Assembly: GCA_964016885.1 (NCBI GenBank)
Contig: OZ024745.1
Location: forward strand, 58,280,001 to 58,344,000
Direction: 5' to 3'
Origin: Eledone cirrhosa
Taxonomy: Eukaryota
DNA: 64,000 nt
Below, piece by piece: positions 1,459 through 8,692 of the stretch. The translations under genes and the position numbers were made by a program. The notes beneath the pieces are model-generated. The model had not been told where the DNA came from. It saw only the letters and a program-made list of their open reading frames with translations, and searched no databases. Each line of letters opens with the position of its first letter. Position 1 is the stretch's first letter.

Positions 1459-1492
<34 letters not shown>

Positions 1493-1723
1493 CATTATAT
1501 TATATTATATCTTTAACTTAATTGTTTAAGCGTCAGTCATACAAAAGTGAGTTACAAATGAAACAAAATTTAATTTCGTTTCGTTATTTGTTTTTATCGT
1601 CTCCGTTGAACCGGTACTTACTCACACTCTATGCAAATTAGTATGCCCACTACTAATTTTCATAGAAAAAGCATATAACGATATGTGCTTTTACGATTCT
1701 CTAGAGAGGCCGGAAGATAGGTA

Positions 1724-1768
1724 AATATTGCTGATGAGTTGTAACAACAACGAAACTAGTTCAATATT
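1724..1768 (+). ncRNA. Type I minimal hammerhead ribozyme (copy 1 of 467-bp array)
   Basis: AATATTG-CTGATGA-GTTGT aaca ACAAC-GAAA-CTAG-TT-CAATATT: 7-bp stem I, canonical core, 5-bp stem II, palindromic CTAG stem III. Confidence 0.88.
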
Positions 1769-2190
1769 CCTTGTCTGGCTTTCTGGAGAATAGAGGAAAG
1801 GTGTTTCCTCAAAAACCAGTATGACTCTAAAAACCGGTTTGTCTGTGTGTTTACATACAGAATAGCTGGCCACTCACAGTAAAGTGACCAGTGAAAAAAC
1901 TTGGTACATCTACATATGTATACGTGTGTGTATTCATATACATACTAGTATTTCAGTATACATATATGGATGTACATCTTTAACTTAATTGTTTAAGCGT
2001 CAGTCATACAAAAGTGAGTTACAAATGAAACAAAATTTAATTTCGTTTCGTTATTTGTTTTTATCGTCTCCGTTGAACCGGTACTTACTCACACTCTATG
2101 CAAATTAGTATGCCCACTACTAATTTTCATAGAAAAAGCATATAACGATATGTGCTTTTACGATTCTCTAGAGAGGCCGGAAGATAGGTA

Positions 2191-2235
2191 AATATTGCTG
2201 ATGAGTTGTAACAACAACGAAACTAGTTCAATATT
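2191..2235 (+). ncRNA. Type I minimal hammerhead ribozyme (copy 2)
   Basis: Identical to 1724-1768, offset +467. Confidence 0.88.
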
Positions 2236-2657
2236 CCTTGTCTGGCTTTCTGGAGAATAGAGGAAAGGTGTTTCCTCAAAAACCAGTATGACTCTAAAAA
2301 CCGGTTTGTCTGTGTGTTTACATACAGAATAGCTGGCCACTCACAGTAAAGTGACCAGTGAAAAAACTTGGTACATCTACATATGTATACGTGTGTGTAT
2401 TCATATACATACTAGTATTTCAGTATACATATATGGATGTACATCTTTAACTTAATTGTTTAAGCGTCAGTCATACAAAAGTGAGTTACAAATGAAACAA
2501 AATTTAATTTCGTTTCGTTATTTGTTTTTATCGTCTCCGTTGAACCGGTACTTACTCACACTCTATGCAAATTAGTATGCCCACTACTAATTTTCATAGA
2601 AAAAGCATATAACGATATGTGCTTTTACGATTCTCTAGAGAGGCCGGAAGATAGGTA

Positions 2658-2702
2658 AATATTGCTGATGAGTTGTAACAACAACGAAACTAGTTCAATA
2701 TT
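2658..2702 (+). ncRNA. Type I minimal hammerhead ribozyme (copy 3)
   Basis: Identical to 1724-1768, offset +934. Confidence 0.88.
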
Positions 2703-2950
2703 CCTTGTCTGGCTTTCTGGAGAATAGAGGAAAGGTGTTTCCTCAAAAACCAGTATGACTCTAAAAACCGGTTTGTCTGTGTGTTTACATACAGAATAGC
2801 TGGCCACTCACAGTAAAGTGACCAGTGAAAAAACTTGGTACATCTACATATGTATACGTGTGTGTATTCATATACATACTAGTATTTCAGTATACATATA
2901 TGGATGTACATCTTTAACTTAATTGTTTATATTATATTATATTATATTAA

Positions 2951-3138
2951 GGCGGTGGATTGGCAGTATCGGTAGAGGGTCGGACGCCATGCTTTCCAGC
3001 ATAGTTACGTCCCTTTACGATCTGAATTCATATCCCGCCGAGGTTGACTTTGCCTTTCATCCTTACGGGGTCGATAAAATAAAGTACCAGTAATACACTG
3101 GTTAATTGCTGGCCTTGTGCCTAACGTAGAAGCAATTA
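2951..3138 (+). mobile_element. SINE (abundant family; tRNA-like head, central domain CTTTCATCCTTACGGGGTCGATAAAATAAAGTACCAG)
   Basis: GGCGGTGGATTGGCAGTATCGGTAG...B-box-like...GTCGATAAAATAAAGTACCAG...GGCCTTGTGCC, with an ATTAT tail. More than 10 related copies in this window. Confidence 0.85.
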
Positions 3139-3494
3139 TATTATATTATATCAATATATTTATTTCTATATGTACGCCTCTATTCTGAAACGCTATGTAA
3201 ATAAGCCATAATCAAAAGTGATTTATTTACAAATCTCTTTATATATGAAGATATTAGCTTCTATGCCTCAGTACGATAATACGTAGGTGTCGTGGAAGAT
3301 TGCTTAATGATCCAGAAATATACAGTATGTACATAGAGTGCTTACAGCATAATTGAGGTAGATGTGATATGATAACAGATTAAGATACTCACCGAAAGGA
3401 CAAATATATGTTAATTAAACAAAAATATATTGTCTTTCTCCATAAACGTTTCTCACTTTCCCTCTGCTCTCCCCCTCTCCGGCACTTACTTAAG

Positions 3495-3800
3495 AAATGA
3501 AATTTCGTTTCATTCTATTCCATTTATCGTTTTCGGTGCGCCTGGCCGACTGAACTCACTCGATATGCAAATTAGGCTGCTCAGCCGTTAATTTTCATAG
3601 GGAAAGTATATACTTTCGAACGTTCAACCATCTGGCAGAAAGGTATACGGTGCTGACGATAGCTAACAAGCTTGAAACTAGTACATCGTTCCTGTGTCAG
3701 TGTTGAACAAAAGGGTGACGTGGTTGCCTGAACATTGTACGGCGTAAATCAGGCTGTCCGTTTGTTTACAAACGAACAAAGCGAACATTATAATAAATGT
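3495..3800 (+). mobile_element. Diverged single copy of the 467-bp HHR-bearing unit
   Basis: Shares AATTTCGTTTC, ACTCAC..TATGCAAATTAG...TAATTTTCATAG, the HHR and CTGT..GT.TGTTTACA with the array unit, in the same order. Confidence 0.75.
3647..3689 (+). ncRNA. Type I minimal hammerhead ribozyme (diverged relative of the array HHR)
   Basis: ACGGTG-CTGACGA-t AGCT aaca AGCT t-GAAA-CTAG-TA-CATCGT. Stems differ in sequence from 1724-1768 but still pair. Confidence 0.85.
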
Positions 3801-3835
3801 TCGGTAATCTGATACGTGCATATATATATGTGTGC

Positions 3836-3909
<74 letters not shown>

Positions 3910-4058
3910 GCTACTGTACGTCTGGATACATATATGTATGTATACATACATACTTACATATATAGATATAGATATATCTATATATATATATGTATGTACG
4001 TATGTACGTACGTATGTATGTACGTATATAACCGTGCACTAGACAGCAGTGAGGTACG

Positions 4059-4089
<31 letters not shown>

Positions 4090-4111
<22 letters not shown>

Positions 4112-4306
4112 TGAGGTTTTTTTTACAAAATGAAAAATAACCGAGGTCTCCTACACGAGTGAAAGTATAAAGAAAAAAAGTTGAAATCGAAAATGCAACT
4201 GGAGTCTTATTTTTTTTTAAATATATATATATATTTGGTTCCTTTACCGGTTTCGCAGTTCTTCTGCTTTTCAAAAGTAGAGTTGAGATGGAGGGTCTGT
4301 GGTTTT

Positions 4307-4310
<4 letters not shown>
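4090..4310 (-). mobile_element. PLE-type terminal fragment with variant-core HHR at 4241-4278 (-); same family as 15160-15526
   Basis: Near-identical to 15165-15365 and flanked by (TA)n on both sides. Minus strand reads ctt-TTGAAAA-GCAG aagaa CTGC-GAAA-CCGG-TA-aagg. Confidence 0.7.
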
Positions 4311-4356
<46 letters not shown>

Positions 4357-4400
4357 AGTAAACTAAAAAGTCAAATGTTTAAAATTTAGCTTCGTTTATT

Positions 4401-4455
4401 ACTGCTATATATATTTCGGTGACAGCCATCTTTGGCTGTGACCTCTTCAGGCAGT
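4401..4455 (-). ncRNA. Type I hammerhead ribozyme (left arm)
   Basis: Minus strand: ACTGC-CTGAAGA-GGTcACAGCC aaagat GGCTGTcACC-GAAA-TATATA-TA-GCAGT. Confidence 0.88.
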
Positions 4456-4937
4456 CCGAATTAGTGTGGTATAGACAAGTACATATGTTGTTGAGGTGTA
4501 TAATTTTGTCAATACTCTGATCTGCCGAGTTCCTGGTTGGGTTGTTATTTCACTGAGGAACTGGAATCATATGAATTCAAACAAACGAATTTCAGTGTCA
4601 AAGGGCCTCTTCTCCTCTCATTGGCCAGTTGTTAGAATATTCCTCATTCAAAAGTCTATAGAAATTCGTTCTGAGGCAAGCCAATCTGTAGTTGTTGTTC
4701 TTGTTCTTGTTAGGTACCTAACAATAACAAGAACAACAACTTTTGAATGAGGAATGTTCTAAGAACTGGCCAATGAGAGGAGAAGAGGCCCTTTGACACT
4801 GAAATTCGTTTGTTTGAATTCATATGATTCCAGTTCCTCAGTGAATAACAACCCAACCAGGAACTGGGCATATCAGAGTATTGACAAAATTATACACCTC
4901 AACAACATTTGTACTTGTCTATACCACACTAATTCGG

Positions 4938-4992
4938 ACTGTCTGAAGAGGTCACAGCCAAAGATGGCTGTCACCGAAATATATATAGCAGT
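4938..4992 (+). ncRNA. Type I hammerhead ribozyme (right arm)
   Basis: ACTGT-CTGAAGA-GGTcACAGCC aaagat GGCTGTcACC-GAAA-TATATA-TA-GCAGT; one G-U pair in stem I. Confidence 0.87.
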
Positions 4993-8402: not shown

Positions 8403-8692
8403 TTAAACTATATTTAATACTAGTCTATATTTCTGAATAAACATATTTTCCTTATTTATTCGTATTTTGTCTGTTGTATTGTCAGTGCAAAGATAAAATG
8501 GGAAGATTTGGAATTTAAGTGTCTTATCGTTTGCGCACATGTCTAGATATGCACTGAGTGGTATCTGTCTTATGGTAGGGTCTCGTAATTGTTGGCGATG
8601 AATTGTCATCCTGTTTCTGAGATTGAGTTTAGTTTGCGCTATATAATCTTCATTATATCCATTACATTTAATGGCATAAATCAAATTTTTTT
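8403..8692 (-). pseudogene. Penelope-like element GIY-YIG endonuclease C-terminal domain, 5'-truncated
   Basis: ORF segment KNLIYAIKCNGYNEDYIAQTKLNLRNRMTIHRQQLRD...PLSAYLDMC...FQIFPFY...RINKENMFIQKYRLVLN follows the PLE pattern (IY..C..C...YIG.T..L..R...H...E..I....LN). It lies between microsatellites. Confidence 0.85.

Follow-up and report, generated by a model that had tools for sequence, protein, structure and literature searches.

What is an array of three short non-coding repeats, each with a hammerhead ribozyme motif, and by what route did it enter the genome? The locus that raises this question lies in a 64,000-nt stretch of Eledone cirrhosa DNA (the window, meaning the whole stretch that was analysed). 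Our reading, held at a probability of roughly 0.7, is that the array is a young non-LTR retrozyme insertion placed by the RT-endonuclease of a Neptune-type Penelope-like element (PLE), probably from a self-cleaved, circular 467-nt RNA. The non-LTR retrozyme class is already known; the insertions of this new member retain unusually clear mechanistic footprints.

An exact 467-bp period spans 1,421 bp of the window (1509-2929), with zero differences between units. An earlier, sequence-only reading had described three identical head-to-tail monomers, and these were borne out, as 3.04 units ending at 2929 rather than at 2928. Its canonical hammerhead in every unit held in part: each unit does carry a type I motif, but with GUU instead of GUC as the cleavage triplet and with a minimal stem III. 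The motif consists of a 7-bp stem I, the core CUGAUGA, a 5-bp stem II with an AACA loop, and GAAA; the minimal stem III is palindromic in every window unit, and two window motifs co-fold via this palindrome. Re-analysis of the motifs returned the same predicted cuts, after 1761, 2228 and 2695, and positions within the unit are given below as phases, counted from the first base 3' of the predicted cut (phase 1). An Rfam scan of the window gave 0 matches at the gathering threshold. The unit is non-coding with a GC content below 50%; a 60-aa minus-strand frame is the sole ORF of at least 40 aa contained wholly within it, in keeping with the earlier statement that there was no credible ORF. Folding of the cut-to-cut monomer yields -149.6 kcal/mol (z = -8.8 against 100 shuffles). 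The array is flanked on both sides by TA-rich microsatellite (Table 1). It was also found in four public runs of unrecorded kind, available as contigs, in which it joins back by one unit and has two loose-end sites, a pattern that fits tandem DNA or an RNA circle alike.

Three further repeats of the window were noted. Right of the array, at 2950-3130, is a very high-copy short repeat, far deeper than the array in the four public runs, which we take to be SINE-like. An inverted repeat at 4390-4990 has a different hammerhead-like motif in each arm and is probably a remnant of another PLE family, and positions 34446-44271 hold a long simple-repeat block (a 125-bp repeat x4, an 11-bp unit x323, (CAT)n and (AAC)n x820).

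Table 1. Positions of the array, its predicted parts and its neighbours in the window.
Feature	Position	Strand	Remark
Left target, (TA)n/(TTATA)n tract	1459..1508	.	
Single-arm retrozyme insertion, 3.04 identical 467-bp units	1509..2929	+	Starts at phase 215, ends at phase 234
Type I hammerhead motif 1	1724..1768	+	Predicted cut after 1761, GUU
Predicted cut-to-cut 467-nt monomer	1762..2228	+	Second copy 2229-2695; strongly self-paired
Most conserved non-core part of the unit, phase 218-305	1979..2066	+	Spans both end sites
End site 1 (phase 229-235), inferred start of RT	1990..1996	+	Window array stops at its last copy of this site (2929)
Tail of ~70 nt to end site 2 (phase 303 = 2064)	1997..2064	+	Second inferred RT start; AT-rich hairpin inside
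Hammerhead motif 2	2191..2235	+	Predicted cut after 2228
Hammerhead motif 3	2658..2702	+	Predicted cut after 2695
Right target, (TTATA)n tract	2930..2948	.	Target-site duplication not resolvable within it
Family B copy, unit ~450 nt, hammerhead with GUA	3493..3959	+	Same two end sites

The unit belongs to a family, here called family A, of about 9,000 or more units dispersed in the genome. In the 3.0 Gb searched, a DNA search with the unit returned 323 matches, from 38 of the 131 candidates scored, and exact ribozyme cores numbered 9,294 (6,130 with GUU and 3,164 with GUC) against 0 control matches; the retrozyme identity put forward in the sequence-only reading and the existence of dispersed copies are both supported. 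With a looser core pattern the count rose to 23,671, and the reversed control gave 3; these numbers and the fold of the monomer show that the motif is not there by chance. Between subfamilies and the window unit there are up to 57 differences. Family B, a sister family with 3,290 first-look candidates, retains the ribozyme core; in an alignment of 438 columns it is colinear with the family A unit at 256. A third hammerhead variant, met in the search for an autonomous parent, turned out to be a subfamily of family B without a joined RT-EN match.

Insertion anatomy was mapped in two sets of loci. Set 1 comprised 31 loci, including the window, from the best 150 matches, and is biased to young, long arrays because it was drawn from best matches. 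Set 2 comprised 35 stretches ordered by position along contig C1, two of which duplicate each other; 16 cover the family A cores listed in the first 23 Mb and 19 were picked for several cores. Most loci consist of two head-to-head (inverted) arms. In set 2, 56 of 59 arm 3' ends fell at phase 228-235 (26) or 296-304 (30), and in set 1 the same two sites accounted for 55 of 56 (53 before two by-eye corrections of small indels), a count that leaves out three tiny pieces and merges split ones at two loci. The two end windows together make up 17 of the 467 unit positions, and the sites lie ~70 nt apart; in family B the end sites, 234-237 and 294, are homologous to these. One end of each kind was present in 20 of 23 inverted two-arm loci of set 2 and in 23 of 25 of set 1. 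A TA-rich 3' flank, mostly (TA)n, adjoined 53 of 59 arms in set 2, and in run X1 loose (TA)n ends occurred at 1995 and 2064, matching both end sites. Arm-arm junctions (n=25) had a 1-3 nt overlap in 14 cases, were blunt in 3 and contained insertions in 8.

The 5' junctions, in contrast to the 3' ends, were uniformly spread in phase (n=115, Rayleigh p=0.95), with no enrichment at the cut site (10 observed vs 9.9 expected). The random permutation of array ends that the sequence-only reading had set as a test is therefore a property of the 5' junctions, whereas the 3' ends are fixed. The permutation of ends relative to the cut probably reflects internal priming by a PLE-type RT, and by itself it is silent on the existence of a circle. 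The window copy, a young insertion, has one arm only and stems from site 1.

As the origin of the array, an ordinary satellite, a local duplication or an assembly artefact is ruled out by the dispersal of the copies and their fixed ends. We give next to no credence to this explanation, in which the ribozyme-like motif would be there by chance, even though the window units are 100% identical and old arrays behave like satellites. Besides the dispersal, the fixed ends and the targets, the presence of the array in four public runs speaks against it, and the mixed arrays described below show that the assembly keeps unit-level variants, which counts against an artefact.

The hallmarks described for PLEs are an inverted 5' arm, a pseudo-LTR, a tail of 30-40 bp on one end and a bias towards microsatellites (PMC8557442, PMC3846280). 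For an anole PLE (Poseidon), the enzyme is reported to cleave both strands of AT-rich DNA, with RT beginning in vitro at two sites inside the RNA, between which the tail lies (PMC11167929). Family A shares with EN+ PLEs (PMC8557442, PMC3846280, PMC11167929) a pair of inverted arms, set head to head, of which only one bears a tail, as well as AT-rich or (TA)n targets and ends downstream of the hammerhead cut. It differs from them in its lack of an ORF (the RT + GIY-YIG ORF of an autonomous PLE is absent from the 467-bp unit), in a tail of ~70 nt and in arms of up to tens of units. Judging from these shared features, family A is very probably a retrozyme mobilised by a PLE.

Candidate helpers are at hand. 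At least two PLE families with RT, CxxC linker and GIY-YIG are present in this genome, and by the CxxC linker both are assigned to the Neptune/Nematis type. PLE1 has intact 775-aa frames and a 63-nt tail; PLE2 has intact 784-aa frames and a 40-nt tail, and of 150 scored, more than 100 copies tie in score. The two ends, the inverted arms and the (TA)n targets of family A recur in both, and both are young, autonomous RT + GIY-YIG families. Scans detected no hammerhead in PLE1 or PLE2 and no homology of either to the 467-bp unit. A PLE terminal repeat with homology to the unit, another point of comparison with known retrozymes, did not turn up in 16 + 30 + 9 PLE stretches, a small part of the more than 10,000 first-look candidates. 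RT-EN matches occurred in 7 of 146 array stretches, with just one joined at the inversion junction. A chimera of a family A inverted arm and PLE2, present in 1 of 75 family A stretches (L195:1153-4501 with L243:1-390), consists of a family A left arm with the tailed end, 40 nt of unit, a 4-nt microhomology and a 5'-truncated PLE2 with the untailed end. This order suggests that one enzyme inserted both parts together, but PLE2 may instead have arrived later and deleted part of the target.

Some further observations concern the PLEs themselves. Fragments of PLE1 (3' ends and a GIY-YIG remnant) lie in the window at 4100-4310, 8406-8690, 15262 and 15484, and full PLE1 copies have an upstream 409-aa ORF that overlaps the RT-EN frame and has no Pfam match. 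A third tandem repeat, of 310 bp and with its own hammerhead-like motif, adjoins PLE1 ends (L091:7280-8221 and L097). On contig C2 (L281-L283, 359.51-359.54 Mb), a PLE2 insertion and its flanks are tandemly duplicated five-fold with a ~3.9-kb period.

The template that fills the arms was approached through array haplotypes. Among the set 1 loci with at least 3 full units, 14 of 16 show a single haplotype and, besides it, only singletons; in loci with two arms the haplotype runs through both, and these clonal haplotypes differ from locus to locus; at two further loci, 18/18 and 13/13 units are identical across both arms. Of the 25 genome matches to variant 93T, 18 lie together at a single locus and 7 stand alone; 6 of these 7 were checked, all 6 being on other backgrounds. 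Variant 238A is found 17 times in a locus of period 467 and 16 times in a locus of period 468, and no second array of either period, as a possible donor, was found among 76 matches. The same test of privacy with 433G was uninformative because several arrays share this variant. A locus-specific haplotype, repeated through both arms in many young arrays, favours the re-reading of a unit-length, likely circular, RNA. The rolling-circle origin suggested by the sequence-only reading thus gains indirect support from clonal arrays with locus-private variants, although some arrays were expanded at the DNA level.

Such expansion was evident at several loci. The 9 set 2 loci with at least 3 full units comprised 3 clonal arrays, 3 that were mosaic or period-2, and 3 too old to call. 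Other non-clonal arrays include a 30-unit mosaic array and arrays of period 2 and period 3. On contig C1 at 95.66-95.69 Mb (L202-L204), an array of more than 60 units, a lower bound since its far end lies beyond the mapped stretch, has a six-unit higher-order repeat and includes units without the core anchor; this array is a retrozyme turning into a satellite. The higher-order repeat, the period of 3 and the five-fold duplication of PLE2 indicate that DNA-level expansion operates in this genome and that older arrays also grew in this way; short arms expanded later could mimic the 93T pattern.

A competing account therefore has to be weighed, in which a PLE mobilises uncleaved linear multimers, unequal exchange later lengthens and homogenises the arrays, and the hammerhead has a minor role. 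It would explain the mixed and the period-2/3 arrays, the unit variants common to both arms and the six-unit higher-order repeat, and it agrees with the weak GUU triplet in two thirds of the cores. Unprocessed RNA is, moreover, the main substrate of the anole PLE in vitro, its ribozyme being dispensable (PMC11167929), and local amplification is proposed in bioRxiv 10.64898/2026.07.22.740005. We nevertheless consider this account unlikely, if worth keeping in mind: arrays of 13-18 units have zero divergence across both inverted arms and locus-specific haplotypes, 238A has no donor array although the variant would be needed in two adjacent template units, and the ribozyme core is conserved in families A and B. 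Donor arrays may be absent from a single assembly. A circle would also be dispensable if a unit-length linear RNA were re-read via end-to-end template jumps of a telomerase-like RT. Clonal arrays are accounted for equally well by such jumps, and PLE RTs are akin to telomerase RT (PMC8557442), but where units meet at the cut site there is almost no scar, with one 2-nt insertion among the best-match arrays, and the 5' junctions are not enriched near the cut; we regard this route as highly improbable. On balance, we think it somewhat more likely than not that young arrays derive mainly from a circular template of unit length.

Conservation indicates that the ribozyme is under selection, the core being kept in family B at ~58% unit identity and stem II showing a compensatory change. 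Across 21 aligned units, one pair of stem II reads A-U in 12 units and U-A in the other 9. The consensus fold of the 21 predicts 147 pairs, 6 of them with a compensatory change. These changes may represent few events inherited by many copies, that of stem II perhaps a single one. Outside the core, shared-variant columns amount to 3 of 88 in phase 218-305 vs 64 of 334 elsewhere (Fisher p=1e-4), and this region is likely to be one of protein recognition. GUU ranks as a weak cleavage triplet under the NUH rule. From this triplet and the minimal stem III, we predict weak, dimer-dependent cleavage; the dimer rule is given in PMC4209133, and of nine retrozymes predicted in Xenopus, eight failed to cleave in vitro (bioRxiv 10.64898/2026.07.22.740005). 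Weak cleavage would be expected to yield both monomer circles and mixed multimers, which matches the mixture of clonal and mosaic arrays.

From the anatomy, copy number, fixed ends, targets and haplotype patterns observed here, we infer a cycle of six steps. The array would be transcribed on the + strand, the transcript would be cut to unit length by the hammerheads, likely acting as dimers, and the circle would be closed by a host ligase. The PLE protein would cut (TA)n on both strands, and both target ends would prime cDNA at two internal RNA sites ~70 nt apart. Each RT would then re-read the unit a variable number of times, and the two cDNAs would finally be joined head to head, often at 1-3 nt of microhomology. 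We put at even odds the more specific proposal that a Neptune-type PLE twin-primes the two internal sites on one ribozyme-made circle, rolling around it in both arms.

The element has every sequence-level feature of non-LTR retrozymes (PMC7229834, PMC7761336) and is a candidate member by motif. Like the metazoan non-LTR retrozymes of coral, mussel and axolotl (PMC7229834), it has non-coding tandem units with one type I hammerhead each. A GC content below 50% and a highly self-paired monomer (PMC7229834; bioRxiv 10.64898/2026.07.22.740005) are likewise shared with metazoan non-LTR retrozymes, as are thousands of dispersed copies and coexisting PLEs. The unit of 467 nt is longer than the 170-400 nt first described for retrozymes and falls within the 51-972 bp of the 2026 vertebrate survey. 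RNA circles were shown for metazoan retrozymes (PMC7229834), whereas the circle of family A is a prediction. The two fixed sites of the 3' ends, the inversion of the arms and the preference for (TA)n targets, on the other hand, are not part of the retrozyme descriptions in the accessible text of PMC7229834 and bioRxiv 10.64898/2026.07.22.740005; in the latter, the word 'tail' is absent and 'inverted' occurs only within a reference.

Family A also resembles Chlamys MRC1 (PMC8557442), as a non-autonomous PLE derivative with multicopy head-to-tail insertions. Most Chlamys elements, unlike family A, are described as having no hammerhead, and the non-autonomous ones match their autonomous partner at the 3' end (PMC8557442), whereas no such match was found for family A in the PLE stretches sampled. 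PLEs were named as candidate helpers of retrozymes in PMC7229834, retrozyme repeats are said in PMC7761336 to carry no helper-indicating motif, and the link to PLEs in bioRxiv 10.64898/2026.07.22.740005 is based on co-occurrence and homology. In a literature search with subscription journals outside its coverage, PMC8557442 and a squid genome paper were all that surfaced on octopus or cephalopod retrozymes or hammerheads. A search on PLE twin priming and retrozyme rolling-circle RT found nothing on a two-end, inverted-arm anatomy in the texts it reached.

For animal retrozymes, neither the helper nor the way of integration has yet gone beyond hypothesis, and the insertions of family A bear the PLE signature directly. 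Because of this signature, the base-level predictions of RT starts and the young, intact candidate helpers in the genome, mobilisation becomes testable in vitro, and the multi-unit arms provide a natural test of whether twin priming produces the inversions of PLEs. If the twin-priming mechanism proposed here is true, family A would provide direct genomic evidence for the mobilisation of animal retrozymes and for the origin of the inverted-arm and tail structure of PLEs, and a named, young, hammerhead-less partner family would be available for reconstitution.
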